A stretch of DNA of 56,587 nt from a virus (lineage: Duplodnaviria > Caudoviricetes): the IMG/VR virus record IMGVR_UViG_3300032092_000034, positions 1 through 56,587 of that record. One strand, written 5' to 3'. Of this stretch, positions 17,676-47,040 are shown piece by piece (positions within the stretch are counted from its first letter, which is position 1; each line of letters begins with the position of its first letter). A program made the position numbers and the translations under genes. The notes under the pieces are model-generated. The model searched no databases and was not told the DNA's origin. It saw only the letters and a list, made by a program, of their open reading frames with translations.

Positions 17676-18052
17676 TGGGAGGGAAGTGGCACTCCAAAGT
17701 TGATGGAATATACCACGTATTTTGACGAGGAGGTAGGATTCCTACCCGGGGGTATTAGGGAAAACACCTATATACAAAGTGCTGCGCAAAAAAAGACCCC
17801 GGGGAGGGGGTCTAAAGGAGTAGGCAACTAACTTCGGTAATTATATACACGTTGTGGGGGATGTGTATAGATTTTGTGAAAATTTGAACATGTTGTAGGT
17901 TATTTGTGCAAGTCTTGGTGTATAGGACGCGGGAGGGACCCATTTGGGAATCCGGGGGGTGGGGGTCACCTGCCCAGCCCCGTATATGTAAAGTTTGTGT
18001 TATACTAATTCCAATGCGATGCAATAGTGCAAAGCAGAAATGGAGAATGCAA

Positions 18053-18265
18053 ATGGATGGAATGCTCACAATCAAAATGGCGGTAACTCTGCCAACAACT
18101 AAGTACCGCATGAAGCGTGTCACACTAGCCAAGTCATGGTGCAAGCGTAGTGAATGTGATAGTGTGTTTGCCAAGTTTTTAAGTATAAATGACCATATCA
18201 ACCCCACGCTATTGCGTGTGGAATGGATAGCGCAGGAAAGCGTGTTTGCTGGAGATGAGTCTTAA
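18053..18265 (+). CDS. early hypothetical protein
   Basis: ATG 18053 after GGAGAATGCAA leader; TATACT -10 at ~18001. Confidence 0.65.
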   Translation: MDGMLTIKMAVTLPTTKYRMKRVTLAKSWCKRSECDSVFAKFLSINDHINPTLLRVEWIAQESVFAGDES

Positions 18266-18306
18266 TCAACCCGCAGGGCGAGAGCCCTGCATTTTTGGAG
18301 AATGCA

Positions 18307-18552
18307 ATGAAACCCTGGGATGAAATGTCAGTAATGGAAAGAATGCGTGCTGAATACAGCGATTTGCACAAAGATACTTTTGGCTTTCGCCCATCTATTG
18401 AGCACAGAATGGAAATTGCAAAAATGTCAGATAAAGAATTCGTAATGCAATTTGATACCCTGCTCGATATGATGCAATGCGATTCAGAGTTTGAACAGCA
18501 AGTACATATCGAACGCAGGAAATTGGAAAATCGGGATTGGGAAAAAGAGTAA
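18307..18552 (+). CDS. early hypothetical protein
   Basis: ATG 18307 after GGAGAATGCA; YSDLHKDTFGFRP motif seen in phage early proteins. Confidence 0.8.
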   Translation: MKPWDEMSVMERMRAEYSDLHKDTFGFRPSIEHRMEIAKMSDKEFVMQFDTLLDMMQCDSEFEQQVHIERRKLENRDWEKE

Positions 18553-18598
18553 CTGATGAGGCTTGAATAGCCGAAACCGCAGGGATGCGGTCTTACTC
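18547..18598 (+). ncRNA. hammerhead ribozyme, type I
   Basis: Stem I GAGUAA/UUACUC; core CUGAUGA; stem II GGCU-UGAAU-AGCC; GAAA; stem III CCGCA-GGGA-UGCGG; GUC cleavage triplet (cut after C18592). Confidence 0.9.
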
Positions 18599-18618
18599 AA
18601 CTAACTGGAGAATGCAAA

Positions 18619-18861
18619 ATGTGGACACAATTAAATCTTTTTGACAAACAAACCGAAGTGGAATATGCAATGAGTTTGACATCGGATGAATTACAATCAA
18701 TCAAACAAAGTAGTGAGTATTCATACGAATTGATTAAAAACTTGCGCCATATTGTGCAAAGATGTGAATCAATAAAAAAAGGCGCAGACTTACGCGCAAG
18801 GGCAGAAATAGATGCGTGTTTATTAGGGGTACATAATTTTACGCGTGGATATTCTCGCTAA
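18619..18861 (+). CDS. early hypothetical protein
   Basis: 80 aa; GGAGAATGCAAA leader; terminator follows. Confidence 0.75.
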   Translation: MWTQLNLFDKQTEVEYAMSLTSDELQSIKQSSEYSYELIKNLRHIVQRCESIKKGADLRARAEIDACLLGVHNFTRGYSR

Positions 18862-18865
18862 ACAC

Positions 18866-18893
18866 AGGGGACTTCGGTCCCCTTTTTATTTTT
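18866..18893 (+). terminator. intrinsic terminator
   Basis: AGGGGAC-TTCG-GTCCCCT followed by T tract. Confidence 0.9.
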
Positions 18894-18904
18894 GCCTGTG
18901 CCTT

Positions 18905-18983
18905 TGATGCCAGTTATTCGTCGTCGCGCGTGAGCTGGGCGCGTATGCCAAGCGCGTATATAAGCGTTCAGGATACGCTGAAA
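18905..18983. repeat. conserved intergenic element, copy 1 of 3
   Basis: TGATGCCAGTTAT..GTCGTCGCGCG-[variable]-CAAGCGC.TAT...TTCA-N8-TGAAA. Confidence 0.85.
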
Positions 18984-18984
18984 C

Positions 18985-19013
18985 TTTACTTAAGAGCTAG
19001 CATGGTATATAAT
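18985..19013 (+). promoter_or_regulatory. sigma70-like promoter
   Basis: TTTACT-17 nt-TATAAT, followed by a 5' hairpin ACCGCAGAC-AATTCG-GTTTGCGGT. Confidence 0.7.
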
Positions 19014-19069
19014 TCACTCACCGCAGACAATTCGGTTTGCGGTGTTTTTAAACTTTTTGGAGATTTGCA

Positions 19070-19720
19070 ATGAACGCAAAGACAAAATCCGCAATAGCCG
19101 TTGAAGCTATTACGCCCCGCGACTTAAAAGACGCGGCCTACAAATTCGCTAAAACCGGCGAAACATCCGCGAGCATTGCTCGCTTTGTGATGGACAATGA
19201 TGCTTCATTCCCTGATGAAGTCAGCAAAGAATTGAAAGCCGATTTAAATGCGGGTTTCATGTTGCGCGCGACTGAATTGTGGGGTGATGAATTCTACAAA
19301 ATCGGTGACGGCGGTACATACATTCCATTGGGCAATTCCATTGTCTTAAAGAATGAAACCCCACAAGGGTCAATCCGCGTCGGTCTGTCCTATTGCTTTG
19401 CAATGAGTCAGCAAGAATTCGGGCAATTAAAAAACAAAGACCCGCAATTACATAGCATTGTCAAACCAATGCGCGACAAATTCAGCAAGTATTCCCACAA
19501 TAATATCGCGGCGCTGAAATTGGCGGCACGCGCTTTGTTGAATGATGGGAAGTCACGCGAACGCGGCGCGACAAAAAACTTCAGCGAAGCATTAGCTGAA
19601 ATGTTTAGCGCATACGATAAACGCGCAAAGAACGCTGAAGCGCGCAATGATGAAACGGCGTCACCGCTTAGATTCAGAGTCGCCGTAGATGCTTTTTGGT
19701 CTGCATACAATAAAAAATAA
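19070..19720 (+). CDS. early hypothetical protein, paralog A
   Basis: 216 aa; shares KDAA, SQQxFGQLKNxDP, RDKFxKY, KNAxARxD with 19955-20533. Confidence 0.85.
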   Translation: MNAKTKSAIAVEAITPRDLKDAAYKFAKTGETSASIARFVMDNDASFPDEVSKELKADLNAGFMLRATELWGDEFYKIGDGGTYIPLGNSIVLKNETPQGSIRVGLSYCFAMSQQEFGQLKNKDPQLHSIVKPMRDKFSKYSHNNIAALKLAARALLNDGKSRERGATKNFSEALAEMFSAYDKRAKNAEARNDETASPLRFRVAVDAFWSAYNKK

Positions 19721-19735
19721 TTAGCTAATAGTTTT

Positions 19736-19762
19736 AGACCCCGCTTCGGCGGGGTTTTTTTT
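19736..19762 (+). terminator. intrinsic terminator
   Basis: ACCCCGC-TTCG-GCGGGGT followed by T tract. Confidence 0.9.
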
Positions 19763-19787
19763 CGCCCAAAATATCTGCCCTCCCCCC

Positions 19788-19867
19788 TGATGCCAGTTAT
19801 ATGTCGTCGCGCGTGTGCAAGCTGGTGCATGGCAAGCGCCTATATAAAGATTCAGGGTAGCGTGAAA
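19788..19867. repeat. conserved intergenic element, copy 2 of 3
   Basis: Same consensus as copy 1; followed by TATAAT at 19884-19889 and hairpin CCGCACAGC-AATCAG-GTTGTGCGG. Confidence 0.85.
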
Positions 19868-19954
19868 CACTAAATAGTTGTTATATAATTCTCTTACCGC
19901 ACAGCAATCAGGTTGTGCGGGATGTTCTTTAACACTTCTAATGGAGAAATGCAT

Positions 19955-20533
19955 ATGAATGCAAAGCAAAACTTCGTGGTTAAGTCCTTCAAGGATGCCG
20001 CCATTATTTCGGCGACCCTCGGCGAGCGCATGGCAACAGTTGCCCAGTTCATCGTCACCCAGTGTCCTAATTTCTTGGATGATGTACCCAAGGAAGTCAA
20101 GGCGGAACTGCATGAAGGTTGGGCGGTTCGTTGGCAGGAACTCAATCCTGCTACGGAATACTCAACCGAATGGGTTCCCAAGAAAGGTGGCGGGTTTGTG
20201 GCAACCCTTGCCTTTGCCATGTCTTACAGTCAACAGGCTTTCGGGCAGTTGAAAAATGAGGACCCAGTAAAGCATGGCGTCATCAAGGATGTTCGGGACA
20301 AGTTCAATAAATATTGTTCTAACCGAATGAAGGACTTGAAGAAGGCGGTTCGTGACCTCAACCCTGAGACAAGAACTAGGACACAATCCGACAACTTCGC
20401 AACTTATATCGAGAAAACGATGGATAACATCAAGACACGATGCAAGAATGCGGTTGCAAGGGATGACGCAACAGCCAACGAACTTAAAACGAGAATGGCA
20501 ATACAAGCATTCATGGATACTCTGAACAAGTAA
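19955..20533 (+). CDS. early hypothetical protein, paralog B
   Basis: ATG 19955 after GGAGAAATGCAT; homologous to 19070-19720. Confidence 0.85.
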   Translation: MNAKQNFVVKSFKDAAIISATLGERMATVAQFIVTQCPNFLDDVPKEVKAELHEGWAVRWQELNPATEYSTEWVPKKGGGFVATLAFAMSYSQQAFGQLKNEDPVKHGVIKDVRDKFNKYCSNRMKDLKKAVRDLNPETRTRTQSDNFATYIEKTMDNIKTRCKNAVARDDATANELKTRMAIQAFMDTLNK

Positions 20534-21260: not shown

Positions 21261-21288
21261 TTGTGGTATAACTATTATGTGGTATAAT
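21261..21288 (+). promoter_or_regulatory. extended -10 promoter
   Basis: TGG-TATAAT at 21280-21288; leader duplicated at 22601. Confidence 0.65.
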
Positions 21289-21375
21289 ACAAACAGGTCG
21301 GGGAATATCCTTAGACCGTGCCTGTTTACCGTTTCACGGTAGGCTGAAATTAACCTCAATCAAATGGAGAATGCA

Positions 21376-21657
21376 ATGAAAGTTAACTTTGTTTTTAATC
21401 GTTCTATGCGCAAGACATTGCGCCTTGCAACCCGCCGCCCTGCGTACAACATTGCGCACACAGACCTGACCGAGACACTGCGCCGAGACGCGTGTTTGAC
21501 TGACGATGTTCTGTTACAGAATTTAGAGTTCCTTGACCGTGGCTACGACCACGACGAGTTCATGGACATTGATAACGAATACGAGGGCTTGACCATAACC
21601 GAGCCTATGGACGAGGTAGAGCAGTTCAAGTTCTGCACTGGCTACGACGTCATCTAA
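21376..21657 (+). CDS. early hypothetical protein
   Basis: ATG after GGAGAATGCA; acidic C-terminal half. Confidence 0.75.
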   Translation: MKVNFVFNRSMRKTLRLATRRPAYNIAHTDLTETLRRDACLTDDVLLQNLEFLDRGYDHDEFMDIDNEYEGLTITEPMDEVEQFKFCTGYDVI

Positions 21658-22578: not shown

Positions 22579-22606
22579 TTGTTTATATGTCAAGTTATGC
22601 TATAAT
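22579..22606 (+). promoter_or_regulatory. extended -10 promoter
   Basis: TGC-TATAAT at 22598-22606; leader similar to that at 21283. Confidence 0.65.
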
Positions 22607-22689
22607 ACAAACAAGTCGGGAAGTATCTACAAACGGTGGTTACTTACCGATTCACGGAGAGCTGAAATTTCAACCAACTGGAGAATGCA

Positions 22690-22938
22690 ATGGGAAAGAT
22701 GAAACATATTTCTATTCTGATAGACGAGGCAATGGCGGCGGGCGCACTACCCAATCCGCTCATCAAAGCGCCAACTGTCTATGTTGTTATGTGCGACGAG
22801 AAGCCTGTCGGCGTGTATGTTGACAAGCAGACTGCCGACTACGAGATGCACCTGTGCATCCAAGGCGACTACATCGAGATGGGGGTCGTATCAAAGTATG
22901 AGCTTCTCGAACTGCCTCTGACCACTCATCGTCTGTAA
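22690..22938 (+). CDS. early hypothetical protein
   Basis: 82 aa; GGAGAATGCA leader. Confidence 0.7.
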   Translation: MGKMKHISILIDEAMAAGALPNPLIKAPTVYVVMCDEKPVGVYVDKQTADYEMHLCIQGDYIEMGVVSKYELLELPLTTHRL

Positions 22939-25460: not shown

Positions 25461-25713
25461 TGTGATGAAAATTAAAGTTTATTTTGAAGCGCCAGCAGGC
25501 GCACACGAGATAGCCGAGTTCTACGATGAAGTGTTGTACATGGCGTGTGTACCCGCACTTGAAGAAAAGGCTAAGGCGCAAGGATATGTATTGACTGAGT
25601 CAGTAACTTATGACGAGGTAACAGAGGATGAGTAAAGAAAGTATTGGGTTGACCGTCGTCTATGTCTTGGCGGTGGTTGTTTTGTTGTTAGATTTATTTA
25701 TTTGGAGAATGTA

Positions 25714-40755: not shown

Positions 40756-40951
40756 GCCCTACGACGAGCCAGTATGGTTGTTCCCCTATCCAGCGATGCT
40801 GGTGGGGGATAGCTTCTTTATACCGACTATGAAGCCTGCGTACTTGACGTATGCGGCTGATAACGCCGCAAAGAAAAGTGAAGTGAAAGTAAAAATACAC
40901 ACCGTCACTGAAGACGGTGTTCTTGGTATACGTGTTTGGCGCGTGTCTTAG
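40730..40951 (+). CDS. small hypothetical protein
   Basis: FPY..MLVGDSFFIP...GIRVWRV; last plus-strand gene. Confidence 0.7.
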   Translation: MKKLSSASKPYDEPVWLFPYPAMLVGDSFFIPTMKPAYLTYAADNAAKKSEVKVKIHTVTEDGVLGIRVWRVS

Positions 40952-43900
40952 GGTTTGACGTCAAGCGTATCAAAGGCTTCAACGAGTCTGTGTTTAACCA
41001 AGCTTGACATGTCGTTAAGCTGTTTGAGCTGTTCTTTGCGCTCCATGATGGTTAAATCTTTATTTGCGCGAACTTGATTTGCCATAGTACGAATATTGCG
41101 TAGTGTCCCATTTACTTGCATGTTGTAGAACTGTACAGCAGAATAGGCATTGGGGTTGTCCTCCATAAATTTTTCCAATTGCTCTGGGCGGTCTCTAAGC
41201 GAATTGATGCGCTGCTCCATCTTCTTGACTTGCTTCTCAATGCTACTAAATTCACGGGCATCAATGTTTGATTTAGACCCAATAAAGCTACTGAGGAACA
41301 CCATGTCGTTCTTTGGATCAAACTCTTTTGCCCCAGCCACAGTCAAGCCTACGTTTGTCGCACTTGAAGCCATCTTTGCAATACCGTCAAAGTAGTTGCT
41401 GGCAAAAAAGTACATTGTGTTTGGACTCCAATCCACCGCGCCATTAGTTGCATCAAACAATTCTCTAGCGGCTTTCTTGTACATCTCAGGAATGTTATCC
41501 CCACCAGTGTACGCATCGCCAAACCGCGACTGACGATTGTTATATATCTGACGCCCCAGACCATCCAAGTTCATCACATACTCAAAGAACGGACGGAATG
41601 CAGATGGCGTTACTGAGTCCATTGCAAACGCTGGGAAGTTGTCTATTGGACTGATGCGCGATACCGGCAGCGGCATGAATGAGTCAGCTCCTGTAACCAC
41701 GATGTTTCCAAACGCGTCAAGTAGAGACGTCCTGCCAGATGCAACAGACGCTATCTGCGCGCCAGCAGATGCAAATGCGCCAAGACCAAAGCCCCAAGGG
41801 ATCTGAATAATTATGTCTGTGCCGGGTATATGGAATCGCGCATAGCGAGTCCAACGTGCCATATCGTCCGTGACGACTTTGTTGCGACCTAAGTCATCAT
41901 CCTCTGCCATCATCAACGCCATATAGTACATAGCTACGCCTGTACCAATTAGTCCTGTGGACATATACCGCGCATTAGTTTGGCGTTGTTTAAGTTCTTT
42001 TACGGCGTTGTCAATCTGCTCTTCAGTACGACCCTGCGCAGCAGCTTCTTCTCTAAAGTTTGCTTCGTTAAAACCAAACGCTGGAGCCAACGCTTCAATC
42101 GCTCTAACTGCGCCTGTGGCAGCTGGACGGAAGAACATAAACAATGCGCCAGCACCCTTGCCCCAACGACCGACCTGCTCAAAGTTGGCTAGGTTCTTGG
42201 CATACTCAACTGCTTGAGACTTAGCGTCAGCCAGCGCATCAGCATCGTTTTTAAATTTACCGCTTGATTTATTCTCGGCAAAGAATTGATCCTTCAACAT
42301 ACGATACGTAGCAGCACGGCTAGACAATTCAAACATGTCGTTATAGATGTCAATGAACTTGTCTACCTGATCTTTCTTTTGCAGGATGCCACTGCGTCCA
42401 ACTTCTTTTATCAGTCCATCAAGCGCACCCTTGGCAGCAAGACCTTGCAGGTATGACACCTTGCCACCTAACTGTATATAGTCAAGCAGGTCAGCGTAGT
42501 ATTGGTCTTTGGCGGCAAGCTCTTTTAGTTTGTCAAATTTACCGTTCGCATACAGGTTAGAAAACTTAATTGACTTGTACATGCCACCACCAGCCACATC
42601 CGCAGCAACAGCAGTCAGCAACTGCCCAGCTTTGGTTGGGCCAAATTCAGCACCAAGCGTAAAGGCATTAGTCAACGCATCGCGCACAAAGTTCATTGGC
42701 GCAAACGCTGGGTTATACCGTGTGTGCATTTGCCCGATACCACTTGTAATTGCGTTAGCAATCTCGATTAATGGTTGCGTTGTTCTGTATGAACGTCGAA
42801 TAGCTTCGCGTTGTTTTGGATCATTCAGTTCAATGATGTCTACTGTTCCATCGGCGTTGTAATGGAATATTTTGTTGTCTCCGCCAATGTCTTTCTTTTC
42901 AACATTGTTTAGGAAACGATCTTCAAACTTAATAGGGTCTTTGCTGACTTTACCAATAAGTAATTTGTCTCTTACAGCATTCTTAATTGACAGAGTCAAG
43001 TCTTTACGTCCAGCACGCATAGCAGCAGACGCACCATCCGCAAGGGATTGGAGTAATGGATTCTCAGACTCTGACTCTCGACCACTAAAAGGATTTTGGC
43101 CTTCCTGCAAGTCACCGCCAATACGTCGTGAATCAATGTTGAACTCTTCGTCAATCTGCCTAAAGCCGGGACGTCCTTTGAACGGCACATAGTTTTGGAA
43201 GTTATAGAAGTCAATTACGTTTGACGCAGGTTGAGAGTGGTAGTTAGCCATCTTGTTCAGTGTCTGTGTCAGTTGATTGACTTTACGCAGGGATTCCACC
43301 ACCGCATCAACTTCTTTTTCTGTCTCGGGTGTTACGCGCTCTTTAAGGATTGCTGCAATTTGTCGCGGTGTACGGTTTGCAATGACGTTGTACATTGCAT
43401 TGTTTTGGTTAAACATTTCAGGCGCAGTTGGTTTACCGTTTATCTGTTTTGCATGAAATGTCTTATCGTCAACAACTTGATCCAGCATGGCGCGTAGGTC
43501 AAGCGCGCGCTCTTTGCGCTTTTGATCCAACTCGTTGATTTGGTCCTGCGTCATGTCTTCTGTGACTGCGTAAGACGGTTGCGCCAACTCACGCATTATT
43601 GCTTCTCTAAAACCTTCAGCAGAATATTCTTTGCCTTCAAACTTAATACGCTTGCTATCATTTTCAAGCGGCACTGTCTTTATGTATTTGACCCGACGAC
43701 GTTCAGGCTCGTGACGCGCTTCCAAAATAATGTGCAGGCGTGCAAGTGCTTCTTTGATTGTCAGACCAGATTTTTTCGCATACGCTTCTACCGCAGCATG
43801 AGTTTCTTCAGTTGCATTACGTAGATACTCGTCATACAAATTGACAGCCATACCAGCAGAACGCGTAATTTGCCCATACACATTGTTCAGATCAGGCCCA

Positions 43901-46900
43901 ATACGTTTGAGTAAACCAAACAATTTTGCACGGTCTTCTGCTACTTTAATTGGGTAGCGTTCGTTTTGGAACATAGTAGCTGCCCAATGCCCACCTCTTT
44001 TAGTGAACAAATTACTCAAGAACGACTTGGCGGTATGTTCTTTTAGCTGGACTTCAGACTCAGCTTGTGCCGCAAGTTGTTCATCTGATAGATTTGACTC
44101 GTCGTATGTCTCCGCCTTTTTTGTTTCAGTAGGCAGGGGAGCCATTTGGACGCCGCCCTTTGGAGCAGACATGACGTATTCAAATGCGCCAAAGGTTTCA
44201 ATTAGCGCATTGCGCTCTCCAACAGTATCTGGAATGCCAAGTACTTGGGCAACAGCTTTTACAAAATTAGACCATGCATCTTTGACTTGACCCCATAATG
44301 AAGCACTAGCTGGGATCTGTATGCGTTGTAATTCTTTTTGAAATGCACGGTCAGTCACAGCATAGGCTACAAACTCATACACGTTCTTGTATGCAGCAGG
44401 GTACTTTTGCGCCAAGAGAGGCTGTGTTTTACCCATCAAGTAATCAAGATGCACTGCGCCGTCTTCTTGTTTTTGAGATAACTTACCCGTGCTTTCTTCA
44501 AAACTGTTTAACACGCGTATGGTCCCGGCGTGCGCAAACTCATGTAGTAAGACAGTCTCTGTCTGTCCTTCTTTGGTCACCCGGACAGTATCCGTTTGAG
44601 GGTCGTACTCCGCAGGGCGATTGTTTTGTAATCCTTTTACGATTTCAACTTTTGTATCTAGTTTAAGTTTGTAAAGCGCCTGTGCAATAGCTCTATGTAC
44701 GGGGTCTTGCGCAGAAGTACGTAAGTAGTTTAGGAAAGCTGTGGCGTTATTCTTATCAAGCTGTTCTTCAACAAACTTTGGTAGTGGTTTAGTCTTAGGC
44801 ACGCCTTCAGGTTGGATGTCCTGCGTTTCAGCTAAGTAACCAGACAATCTTTCAGCCGCAAGGTCATGTTCAGGCTGATTATTAGTCGCTAAACCTTCAA
44901 AGTAAACCTGTTTTTCTTCAGGCGACAACGCGCCAAACTCAGGCAGGTGTAGCCGCGCATCGGGTTCAATACCGTTGTGGTATTCCCGTGTGTCTTCGTA
45001 CATCTCCTGTTGTTCAGGAGTTATTTCTTGTTCTCGCGTTTCTGGAACACCACTAGGCTTTCCTTTGGTTACTATTGAATTAAATAATTCATTCTTGTCG
45101 TTTATTTCTTTTATCAATTCTTCGTCGGTAAGCGCCGCTGCTCTAGAAGGAGGCAAAAGATATGATTGTTCATCGCCGTCAGAGTATTTAGCCGCAATAA
45201 CAGTCCAACCACCTTCGCCCCGCACAACTTTGTATTCAGTATTTTTGTTGTAAGCAGGTTCATCAAAGTATTCGGGAATAGTAACAGTAGCTGTGTACAT
45301 TTCTCCCGGCTGATCTTTTGCCGCATCAATTTTTGCCTGCGCTTCAATATGACCAAGATTTGTAGTTTCTTCTACGCTTTTTTTATTTAACTCTTCTACA
45401 GGCGCTTCAGATTCTATTTTTTCTCCTGTAATAGGGTGTACAAAAGAAAAATCTTCTTCGTCTGCGTCAATTGGAAGGGATTCATCTACTGGAGCTTGTT
45501 GCGTTCCTTCTCCTGCAACAGGTTGCACAACATCCTGTCTAGGAGGAACCACTCCAGATCCGTCAGGTTCTCCAAGTCCTTCGGTGGGTACGACTGTATC
45601 GGGCTGTTGAGCCACTGGAACGCTTGTTCCACCTGCTGTGGTGTCAGTTGGTACAACATCTGGCGCTCCTTTCTGAGCTGCTTGTAGAGTCTCAATTTGG
45701 GTTTTGACGCGTCTTTGCTTATTTCTTTTACCACTTAACGCGCCTTGTTCTGCTTGAGTAATAGTGCCATCTTGCTTCTTTGCTTCAAGTACCTTAATCT
45801 CTTCAGTTCGTTTATTAAAGTCTTGTACAAGCAAATCAACTTCCGTAGCTGGCGCACCAGCAGGCATGGCAACGGGCGTACCTTCAGGAGAGATTTCAAA
45901 ACCGGATACAGTGCGCTGCGCTGTAGTAGGCGCAAGTTCAGGCTCTGGACCTAGGTCAGTACCCGTAGGCACTTCAACATCTGCCAACCCTTTGGTTTGG
46001 ATCTTTTGCGCTTCGGCCTCAGGCCCTTTGCCAAGTGCTACGTCTGCAACGCCAGTAATAGCGCCACCACCAAGACCGCCCTTGAGTCCAGCATTGATAA
46101 ACCGTTCAAAATTCTTCGGGGTGAAAAACTCTTGGTTTTGGTCAACAAAATTTTCAGCAGCAGCACTCGATACTTCTTGCAACGCTTCAGTACCGCCTTC
46201 AGTCACAAAGCCTTTGGCTACGCCCGTGCCTGCACGTTTATACCAAGCCGCACCCAATTCTTCAGGGCCGATTCCAGACAACTTTGCTTTGCGTAATAGA
46301 CTTATAGGTAACGCAGCGTCCAACACGGCGTTAAAGCCACCAAACGCAATTGCCGTACCAATATCTTGTTTGCCTGTGGCTTCATAAATGTTCTGATAAA
46401 CATCGGGTATGTTCTGCGCCGCAGAGCCAACCAACGCGCCACCTGCTTCATACTTTAGTGCAGTCTGCCGTGCAGCTTGAATACCCGCTTGCGTCGCAGC
46501 TTGCTTTAATTCTTCACCTACCAGCCCTTTGGCGGCTTGATTCAGCACAGCTTTCTCAGCAGCAGACTGCGCCGCCGCTACTGCACCACGCCCTAAAACA
46601 GATGCTGCGCCGCCAGTGAACAAACTTGGTATGAGAGAGGGCAGGGCTTCTCCAACTGCTTCCTTGGCGTATGTAAGCGCATCCCCTACACCTGTGATGT
46701 CGGTATACGATGCTATTTCAGCTGGATATTTTTTTGCTATTTCTTCTTGGGTCTTTGCAGCCTCTTGCATCTGCTGCGCGGCGTACTCATCTGCGCCAAC
46801 TGCTTTACCAACCATAGCAGGCAGGATATCCCCAAGCAGCATACCGGTTTGCGCTGCGCCACGTTTGATGGACGGAATGAAGCCAGTTTCCGGTTTCTTT

Positions 46901-47040
46901 ACTGGGGCAGGGGGAGCCTCTGGTTCTTGCATCAAATTAAGATAGTCTGACGCCAGCATTTTTACCGCATCTACTGGCAGGCCATCAGGCCCTTCAAAGT
47001 TATAAACCTTCCCGCCGGAACGTACTTTGTAAGTTGCCAT
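40948..47040 (-). CDS. large polyvalent/internal virion protein with zincin HExxH and LPD38-like C-terminus
   Basis: 2030 aa; LLHEFAH...EFVA; NPAFAPMNFVRD and IPWGFG motifs; last gene of the ejection cluster. Confidence 0.75.
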   Translation of the reverse strand: MATYKVRSGGKVYNFEGPDGLPVDAVKMLASDYLNLMQEPEAPPAPVKKPETGFIPSIKRGAAQTGMLLGDILPAMVGKAVGADEYAAQQMQEAAKTQEEIAKKYPAEIASYTDITGVGDALTYAKEAVGEALPSLIPSLFTGGAASVLGRGAVAAAQSAAEKAVLNQAAKGLVGEELKQAATQAGIQAARQTALKYEAGGALVGSAAQNIPDVYQNIYEATGKQDIGTAIAFGGFNAVLDAALPISLLRKAKLSGIGPEELGAAWYKRAGTGVAKGFVTEGGTEALQEVSSAAAENFVDQNQEFFTPKNFERFINAGLKGGLGGGAITGVADVALGKGPEAEAQKIQTKGLADVEVPTGTDLGPEPELAPTTAQRTVSGFEISPEGTPVAMPAGAPATEVDLLVQDFNKRTEEIKVLEAKKQDGTITQAEQGALSGKRNKQRRVKTQIETLQAAQKGAPDVVPTDTTAGGTSVPVAQQPDTVVPTEGLGEPDGSGVVPPRQDVVQPVAGEGTQQAPVDESLPIDADEEDFSFVHPITGEKIESEAPVEELNKKSVEETTNLGHIEAQAKIDAAKDQPGEMYTATVTIPEYFDEPAYNKNTEYKVVRGEGGWTVIAAKYSDGDEQSYLLPPSRAAALTDEELIKEINDKNELFNSIVTKGKPSGVPETREQEITPEQQEMYEDTREYHNGIEPDARLHLPEFGALSPEEKQVYFEGLATNNQPEHDLAAERLSGYLAETQDIQPEGVPKTKPLPKFVEEQLDKNNATAFLNYLRTSAQDPVHRAIAQALYKLKLDTKVEIVKGLQNNRPAEYDPQTDTVRVTKEGQTETVLLHEFAHAGTIRVLNSFEESTGKLSQKQEDGAVHLDYLMGKTQPLLAQKYPAAYKNVYEFVAYAVTDRAFQKELQRIQIPASASLWGQVKDAWSNFVKAVAQVLGIPDTVGERNALIETFGAFEYVMSAPKGGVQMAPLPTETKKAETYDESNLSDEQLAAQAESEVQLKEHTAKSFLSNLFTKRGGHWAATMFQNERYPIKVAEDRAKLFGLLKRIGPDLNNVYGQITRSAGMAVNLYDEYLRNATEETHAAVEAYAKKSGLTIKEALARLHIILEARHEPERRRVKYIKTVPLENDSKRIKFEGKEYSAEGFREAIMRELAQPSYAVTEDMTQDQINELDQKRKERALDLRAMLDQVVDDKTFHAKQINGKPTAPEMFNQNNAMYNVIANRTPRQIAAILKERVTPETEKEVDAVVESLRKVNQLTQTLNKMANYHSQPASNVIDFYNFQNYVPFKGRPGFRQIDEEFNIDSRRIGGDLQEGQNPFSGRESESENPLLQSLADGASAAMRAGRKDLTLSIKNAVRDKLLIGKVSKDPIKFEDRFLNNVEKKDIGGDNKIFHYNADGTVDIIELNDPKQREAIRRSYRTTQPLIEIANAITSGIGQMHTRYNPAFAPMNFVRDALTNAFTLGAEFGPTKAGQLLTAVAADVAGGGMYKSIKFSNLYANGKFDKLKELAAKDQYYADLLDYIQLGGKVSYLQGLAAKGALDGLIKEVGRSGILQKKDQVDKFIDIYNDMFELSSRAATYRMLKDQFFAENKSSGKFKNDADALADAKSQAVEYAKNLANFEQVGRWGKGAGALFMFFRPAATGAVRAIEALAPAFGFNEANFREEAAAQGRTEEQIDNAVKELKQRQTNARYMSTGLIGTGVAMYYMALMMAEDDDLGRNKVVTDDMARWTRYARFHIPGTDIIIQIPWGFGLGAFASAGAQIASVASGRTSLLDAFGNIVVTGADSFMPLPVSRISPIDNFPAFAMDSVTPSAFRPFFEYVMNLDGLGRQIYNNRQSRFGDAYTGGDNIPEMYKKAARELFDATNGAVDWSPNTMYFFASNYFDGIAKMASSATNVGLTVAGAKEFDPKNDMVFLSSFIGSKSNIDAREFSSIEKQVKKMEQRINSLRDRPEQLEKFMEDNPNAYSAVQFYNMQVNGTLRNIRTMANQVRANKDLTIMERKEQLKQLNDMSSLVKHRLVEAFDTLDVKP

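Follow-up and report, generated by a model that had tools for sequence, protein, structure and literature searches.

Does the stretch between two small same-strand genes of a double-stranded DNA phage encode a self-cleaving hammerhead ribozyme, and, if it does, what would cleavage do for the messages of the two genes? The question is raised by positions 18547-18598 (+) of IMG/VR virus record IMGVR_UViG_3300032092_000034, positions 1 to 56,587 of which were analysed (56,587 nt; hereafter "the window"). What bacterial and phage hammerheads are for has been in question since 2011, and in a 2019 review their roles are termed "largely elusive"; the present locus makes function testable.

Genome layout and locus

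The window is a linear viral record with an estimated completeness of 89%. The genes at 1-17.7 kb (−) serve packaging and virion structure, portal and terminase among them; a rightward block (18-40.7 kb, +) runs into genes for an ATPase, an HNH endonuclease, a DNA polymerase, an exonuclease, a helicase and a primase, and a leftward block (40.9-56.5 kb, −) follows. A 2029-aa ORF (40948-47040, −) has a weak PHROG match to virion RNA polymerase (E 2.2e-10, ∼236 residues), which hints at an N4-like lifestyle with early genes read by an injected polymerase. The putative hammerhead sits ∼0.5 kb into the + strand block. In the sequence-only reading it was placed between two early genes: the position among small genes on the + strand, in a block leading to DNA polymerase, exonuclease, helicase and primase, was found as described, and the term "early" is plausible.

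The rightward block opens with gene 0 (70 aa; 18053-18265, +), which is preceded by the motif GGAGAATGCAA at 18042-18052 and is nearly identical in the related contigs L004 and L007. The ORF at 18307-18552 had been taken as the first gene of the block; as gene 0 precedes it with the same ribosome-binding motif, this assignment was given up, and the ORF is referred to here as gene 1 (81 aa, +). Its TAA stop codon (18550-18552) supplies positions 4-6 of ribozyme stem I. Between gene 0 and gene 1 lies a terminator-like, GNRA-capped 7-bp hairpin followed by ATTTTT (18273-18290, +). Downstream of the ribozyme, gene 2 (80 aa; 18619-18861, +) starts with an ATG 26 nt past the predicted cut, and a terminator-like hairpin with a T run (18866-18891, +) closes the unit of gene 0, gene 1, ribozyme and gene 2. 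PHROGs gave no family for genes 0, 1 and 2 or their neighbours, and Pfam gave none for gene 2.

The 11-mer GGAGAATGCAA occurs exactly seven times in the window (18042, 18297, 18607, 21366, 22680, 24344 and 27829), always on the + strand and just before an ATG, including those of genes 0, 1 and 2; copies with one mismatch were found at 25704, 32732, 38857 and 39395. It looks like a translation-initiation motif shared by the rightward genes, and might be recognised by a translational regulator or act as a linker in recombination.

The non-coding region between the divergent blocks (17785-18052) contains G-rich runs and hairpins and is ∼97% identical to L004 and L007, while gene 1 strongly diverges. 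The early promoter or promoters presumably lie within it; no sigma-70-like site was found on its + strand.

Sequence and fold of the ribozyme

The core criteria for hammerheads were those given in the methods section of Perreault et al. 2011 (PMC3088659). All nucleotides of the class core (C3 U4 G5 A6 N7 G8 A9, G12 A13 A14, the A15.1-U16.1 pair and H17) are present in the window sequence, together with complete stems of 6, 4 and 6 bp. Stem I (18547-18552/18593-18598) pairs GAGUAA with UUACUC; the core CUGAUGA (18553-18559) follows; stem II (18560-18563/18569-18572; GGCU/AGCC) is closed by the loop UGAAU; GAAA occupies 18573-18576, and stem III (18576-18581/18586-18591; ACCGCA/UGCGGU) carries the GNRA loop GGGA. 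The pairs adjoining the core are intact (10.1-11.1, G18560-C18572; 1.1-2.1, U18593-A18552; 15.1-16.1, A18576-U18591). Stem I is open, stems II and III are closed by loops, and the topology is that of type I. C17 corresponds to C18592, which puts the predicted cut between 18592 and 18593. The flanking residues A18546 and A18599-A18600 (+) are conserved in the family described below and are probably part of the ribozyme.

The earlier description of a type I hammerhead with all core nucleotides and three stems at 18547-18598 is thus borne out by the sequence and by the fold of the 52-mer, and every position given with it proved right: the TAA of 18307-18552 within stem I, the cut after C18592 and the 14 nt from there to the Shine-Dalgarno (SD) sequence of 18619-18861. 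That SD, GGAG (18607-18610), lies inside the GGAGAATGCAA copy at 18607-18617. After the predicted cleavage, gene 2 would be left with a leader of 26 nt (18593-18618, +) that begins with a 5′-OH.

The minimum free energy (MFE) fold of the 52-mer is the exact three-stem hammerhead (−17.1 kcal/mol, z −2.86); its energy was equalled in 1 of 200 shuffles. Within a 172-nt context the predicted MFE fold departs from the hammerhead, pairing with gene 2 taking the place of stem I (z −0.62), a result that weakens confidence in fast folding of the hammerhead and leaves room for ribosome traffic to help it by clearing competing pairings. Stem I is also short and A/U-rich. Fast natural hammerheads need a contact between loop I and loop II. 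The window ribozyme shows no evident contact of the classical loop-loop or pseudoknot type. As a candidate, a pseudoknot between loop II and the flank was sought by eye; the only complement, 3 nt inside gene 1, is not conserved among the family and was rejected. No terminator-like site was found in 18547-18605, where CUUACUCAAC follows stem III.

A descriptor of our own (core, A15.1-U16.1 pair, H17 and paired stems) was run on both strands and matched one site in the window. When the window was shuffled 200 times with dinucleotides preserved, the loose form (stems of at least 4/3/3 bp) matched in 2 of the 200 and the strict form (6/4/6) in none. A chance origin of the window hammerhead is excluded.

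Relatives and covariation

Relatives were sought in viral contigs with the gene 1 and gene 2 proteins, that is, with the motif left unused; ten loci were obtained with each, 17 of them non-duplicate. Eight of the 17 hold 12 hammerheads with the same architecture as the window's. Among these copies all three stems show compensatory changes: GAGUAA/UUACUC, GGACAA/UUGUUC and GAACAA/UUGUUC in stem I; GGCU/AGCC, GACU/AGUC and GACC/GGUC in stem II; and CCGCA/UGCGG to CCGCC/GGCGG in stem III.

A covariance model (R1) was built from eight of the protein-found copies and gave a single match in the window (81.6 bits). A degenerate pattern of the core was scanned over viral contigs and returned at least 132 stretches; over 90 viral loci R1 gave 125 matches at E≤0.01. 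In the resulting alignment 99.5% of 1755 cells are paired, with changes on both sides at 14 of 16 pairs (six of six in stem I, three of four in stem II and five of six in stem III). The covariation score is 0.786, against 0.153 after shuffling and at most 0.095 with slid partners, in an alignment that is fitted to the model; the invariant core of this large alignment is likewise partly imposed by the search pattern and the model. With these reservations, covariation among the relatives makes a functional RNA very likely.

The same core pattern gave at least 120 matches in bacterial genome contigs, from which 80 loci were fetched. By our own arithmetic, DNA of that amount should yield chance matches to a degenerate pattern of 18 bases. 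R1 matched in 67 of 73 viral pattern loci as opposed to 11 of the 80 bacterial ones; this control, in which bacterial loci mostly fail and viral ones mostly pass, supports the discrimination of the model. The best-scoring bacterial matches, two copies at 1495-1546 and 2013-2064 (−) with 76.5 and 73 bits that closely resemble the window's subfamily, are on L229, a 13.9-kb contig binned in a Phycisphaerales MAG; this contig could be a prophage or a piece of phage DNA, and gives a possible lead to a host. A blastn search of 17700-19800 against deposited phage genomes returned no match.

A comparison with Rfam hammerhead models had been proposed along with the original description, and did not bear it out: Rfam 15 gave no match anywhere in the window at the curated gathering thresholds. 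In E-value mode (18450-18700) the sole match was the RAGATH-1 hammerhead (RF03152; 28.2 bits against a threshold of 56.3, E 0.0059), and Hammerhead_1 (RF00163; gathering threshold 34 bits) did not match the window copy even at E≤10. When 58 family copies from 20 loci were tested, a single one reached a gathering score (L055 1995-2046; RF00163, 36.7 bits against 34). The comparative evidence shows that the Rfam miss reflects the limited sensitivity of these models and is no argument against the element. As just 1 of the 58 copies passes, the family is taken as a compact set of type I hammerheads bordering on RF00163, with which it has topology and core in common. RAGATH-1 differs in that the window reaches half of its gathering score, and its extra 5′ hairpin aligns poorly, falls in the coding sequence of gene 1 and is absent from family members. 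For the annotation of viral metagenomes it matters that curated Rfam thresholds overlook nearly all of a well-supported phage subfamily.

That the window copy is an inactive motif, by chance or through decay, might be argued from its Rfam scores below threshold and from its being the only copy in the window; the shuffle counts, the compensatory changes in the protein-found loci and the covariation of the family speak against this, and make it very improbable. The segment 18547-18598 almost certainly encodes a genuine type I hammerhead, for which cleavage is predicted.

Anatomy and gene context of the family

Anatomy and gene context were counted on 115 non-redundant copies, the window's included. 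Most ribozymes measure 50-54 nt. Unpaired A residues mark the open end of stem I (89% of the copies at position −1, 84% at +1 and 68% at +2), and loop II follows the pattern U-N-A-N-U, the three specified positions being conserved in 99, 98 and 80 of 111 rows. From this conservation we infer that the flanking A residues and loop II may substitute for the contact between loops I and II.

A same-strand ORF of at least 35 aa lies upstream of 110 of the 115 copies, and the next start codon mostly follows 19-34 nt past the cut, with an SD sequence. The flanking ORFs are small (medians 86.5 and 78 aa). The downstream proteins were largely without a Pfam family (93 of 103); the ten that have one include ArdC-N, DUF932, DUF6876, a DNA ligase and an HTH protein. 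Copies that start at 0-2 nt past the cut were considered as a subclass of leaderless mRNAs and rejected: the starts are ATG or TTG codons within stem I, upstream and in frame, each such copy has a normal SD sequence and ATG ∼25 nt downstream, and the subclass is an artefact of the ORF rule.

In 106 of the 115 copies the upstream stop codon begins between ribozyme positions −8 and +22, and in 78 it overlaps the ribozyme. The stops form classes: position 4 with 18 copies, position 8 with 29 (where the stop is the UGA of the core), 18/19 in loop II with 15, and −1/−2 with 27. Stops in at least two frames are found within positions 1-26 in 106 of the 115 copies, partly because the catalytic core holds UGA twice. 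This geometry bears on a translation-gated ribozyme, an idea of the sequence-only reading, in which a ribosome terminating on gene 1 would mask the core together with stem I; translation of gene 1 would then set cleavage and thereby the fate of the gene 2 mRNA. The stop inside stem I of the window, and the near absence of a spacer throughout the family, agree with such gating: in almost all members a terminating ribosome would sit on stem I and the core, and folding would be blocked for as long as it stays. The fold of the 172-nt context also suggests that the naked 5′ half can mispair, so ribosome traffic could matter. The frame-set stop classes are, however, what would arise from ORFs that simply read into a stop-bearing motif, and compaction or cassette recombination at stop codons accounts for the same data. 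Gating is therefore regarded as unlikely as the main role, although it is compatible with separation of the two cistrons as a possible added layer.

In every locus the hammerheads are confined to a single strand; two or more copies are present in 26 of 71 locus groups. L035 carries six within 2.4 kb; arrays of four to six hammerheads between single small genes were observed in L035 (1356-3724), L065 (1995-3918), L070 and L076. Between copies of the same genome, identity is 0.29 in the 20 nt upstream of the ribozyme, which equals background, 0.87 and 0.78 within the ribozyme and 0.50 (vs 0.36) in the first 20 nt of the leader; it is back to background by +41. As the identity is limited to the ribozyme and the early leader, the repeated unit consists of ribozyme, ∼20-nt leader and SD sequence.

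Across the relatives with several copies, the stem I strands of neighbours are fully compatible in 21 of 44 consecutive pairs, compared with 7.3% of random cross-locus pairs, which would allow released segments to close on themselves. Circular or re-ligated RNA of the kind made by viroid-like RNAs and retrozymes needs two ribozymes with matching stem I, and the multi-copy relatives could provide them. Within-genome kinship of the copies, however, explains the compatibility; the window has one copy, the stems of its closest two-copy relative, L007, are incompatible (4 of 6 pairs), and circular or spliced products were sought and not detected in the experiments described in passages of Perreault et al. 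(PMC3088659). Production of such RNA is extremely improbable for the window.

Presence and absence among relatives

The same downstream gene is preceded in some close relatives by the ribozyme, in others by a plain hairpin and in others by neither of them, which provides a clean natural experiment. In L007 the slot between gene 0 and gene 1, which holds the hairpin in the window, is taken by a hammerhead identical to the window's; a second hammerhead stands after the homologue of gene 1, and the same leader of the gene 2 type lies behind both. In six contigs (L014, L015, L019, L020, L021 and L023) gene 2 directly follows gene 0 and the hairpin, with gene 1 and the ribozyme both missing; the hairpin is kept there with a degenerate T run. 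In L022 gene 2 comes directly after the 5′ region. As the six related contigs have gene 2 but no ribozyme, gene 2 by itself does not depend on one. When the window is compared with the relatives that lack gene 1, gene 1, ribozyme and leader form an insertion of 310 nt between the GGAGAATGCAA repeats at 18297 and 18607. On this comparative evidence the ribozyme module appears to travel with gene cassettes.

Such mobility would also be seen if ribozyme and leader were a recombination linker, or a rider on one, that shuffles small early genes while cleavage is of little effect. The indel of gene 1 and ribozyme between direct repeats of GGAGAATGCAA, the presence of the identical ribozyme behind a different gene in L007 and the greater likeness of copies within genomes than between them all fit this idea. 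Compensatory pairing and an invariant core, on the other hand, show selection on the RNA fold and not on DNA homology alone, and GGAGAATGCAA, six of whose seven occurrences are without a ribozyme, could be the linker by itself. A mere hitchhiker is accordingly held to be improbable.

Comparison with known systems

Clustered hammerheads that flank single genes in prophages are described in passages of Perreault et al. 2011 (PMC3088659), where three tandem arrangements were cleaved in vitro and one in vivo, and where the proposed role is the processing of long phage transcripts into gene-length mRNAs. The window copy, between genes 1 and 2, has the arrangement of these clusters (same strand, intergenic, flanking single genes). 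As far as those passages describe them, the clusters share with the present family the canonical core, the same-strand intergenic site next to single small genes, the occurrence of several copies per operon (here in relatives) and neighbours of the anti-restriction type (ArdC-N, DUF932 and DUF6876 among the downstream proteins of the family). By the main-text description of the clusters, the window element is set apart as a single copy, and its subfamily by a very compact type I build (stems of 6/4/6 bp, total length 50-54 nt) in which conserved A residues are left unpaired where stem I opens; no pseudoknot was seen.

For the haloviruses HF1 and HF2, the same source reports a hammerhead (HHphage) 13 nt upstream of an early gene, with a transcript 5′ end mapped at most 3 nt from the cut (PMC3088659). 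The common trait, on that account, is a hammerhead a few nucleotides before an early gene in a polycistronic early transcript; HHphage has a variant core and belongs to an archaeal virus, whereas the window copy has the consensus core, lies between two ORFs and overlaps the upstream stop. Type I hammerheads in the 5′-UTRs of fungal and plant RNA viruses enable translation, according to the part of PMC13725137 that bears on them. There too a type I ribozyme stands upstream of an ORF and self-cleavage, which in the window is predicted, makes the translated 5′ end; that system concerns eukaryotic cap-independent initiation on RNA genomes, in contrast to the bacterial SD leader of a dsDNA phage.

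A full-text literature search returned no paper on the compact subfamily, the overlap with the stop codon or the cassette indel; the supplementary alignments of PMC3088659 may contain members. Hammerheads between genes of phage operons, as a general phenomenon, have been in print since 2011, and the window element is a further case.

Proposed role

Self-processing of the transcript is the best reading of the locus, as a prediction from comparative sequence data. The ribozyme would be transcribed within the rightward early operon, in the order gene 0, hairpin, gene 1, ribozyme and gene 2. Hammerheads cut after C17 and leave a 2′,3′-cyclic phosphate and a 5′-OH end. By this chemistry of the class, once the 52 nt have been made and are free of ribosomes, the three-way junction would fold and cut after C18592. 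With the type I topology the whole ribozyme body would remain on the upstream RNA, so that the gene 1 mRNA would keep its stop codon and end in the GNRA hairpin of stem III with a 2′,3′-cyclic phosphate; as the stop lies upstream of the cut, no non-stop message is expected. The gene 2 mRNA would begin with a 5′-OH and a 6-nt remnant of the ribozyme, ahead of a standard leader free of structure and the SD sequence.

Ribozyme, ∼20-nt leader and SD sequence would form a repeated intergenic module that parts neighbouring small cistrons. It would give the downstream gene a 5′ end independent of context, shielded from insertions upstream, in the manner of an insulator, and would let the gene 1 and gene 2 halves decay independently. 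Separation of the cistrons, with a defined 5′ end for gene 2 and independent decay of the halves, is judged somewhat more probable than its opposite, the insulator and stability parts being deduced from the layout. Taken as a whole, a genuine hammerhead whose constitutive cleavage separates gene 1 and gene 2 is the best explanation of the locus, and probably the right one; a role of this kind had been put forward by Perreault et al. for the clustered hammerheads.

Down-regulation, in which cleavage marks one half for rapid decay and lowers expression of gene 1 or gene 2, has a precedent in the glmS ribozyme, of another class, which acts in some bacteria through its 5′-OH product as reported in the passages concerned; processed transcripts of differing stability are likewise allowed for in parts of the reviews. 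In nearly all copies, however, the upstream product would retain its stop codon and a hairpin at its 3′ end, and the downstream one a full SD leader; this looks built to preserve both messages and makes down-regulation quite unlikely.

A bolder extension of cistron separation would treat ribozyme, leader and SD sequence as a plug-in insulator cassette, which ends incoming ORFs by stops in two or three frames, cuts itself and leaves a short 5′-OH leader; together with GGAGAATGCAA it would supply the homology for swapping small accessory genes, and termination by the ribosome would time the cut. This proposal is offered tentatively, with the chances rather against it.

A small canonical ribozyme in fixed geometry to stop and SD makes the ideas of insulation, stability and translation gating testable by reporters. 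RNA-library contigs from three of the four runs examined (13 listed) bridge the cut site (X1 record 1, X2 record 8 and X3 record 13), though contigs cannot show RNA ends and DNA was possibly present.

Further features of the rightward block

Stable hairpins with weak T runs lie just upstream of the SD sequences of early genes at 18273-18290, 19019-19044 and 19897-19920 (+); the latter two directly follow promoter-like sites (18985-19013 and 19862-19889). Such hairpins might stabilise 5′ ends, act as leaky terminators or form promoter elements used by a phage polymerase. Two adjacent ORFs of ∼200 aa each (19070-19720 and 19955-20533, +), for which PHROGs gave no family, resemble diverged paralogues when their translations are compared by eye; a separate promoter-like site, hairpin and terminator accompany each of them. 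The segments 21270-21380 and 22585-22694 (+) are paralogous units with 86% identity; in each, a promoter-like TATAAT box precedes ∼75 nt of conserved leader, which has GGAGAATGCAA at its end and may be a structured 5′ UTR.
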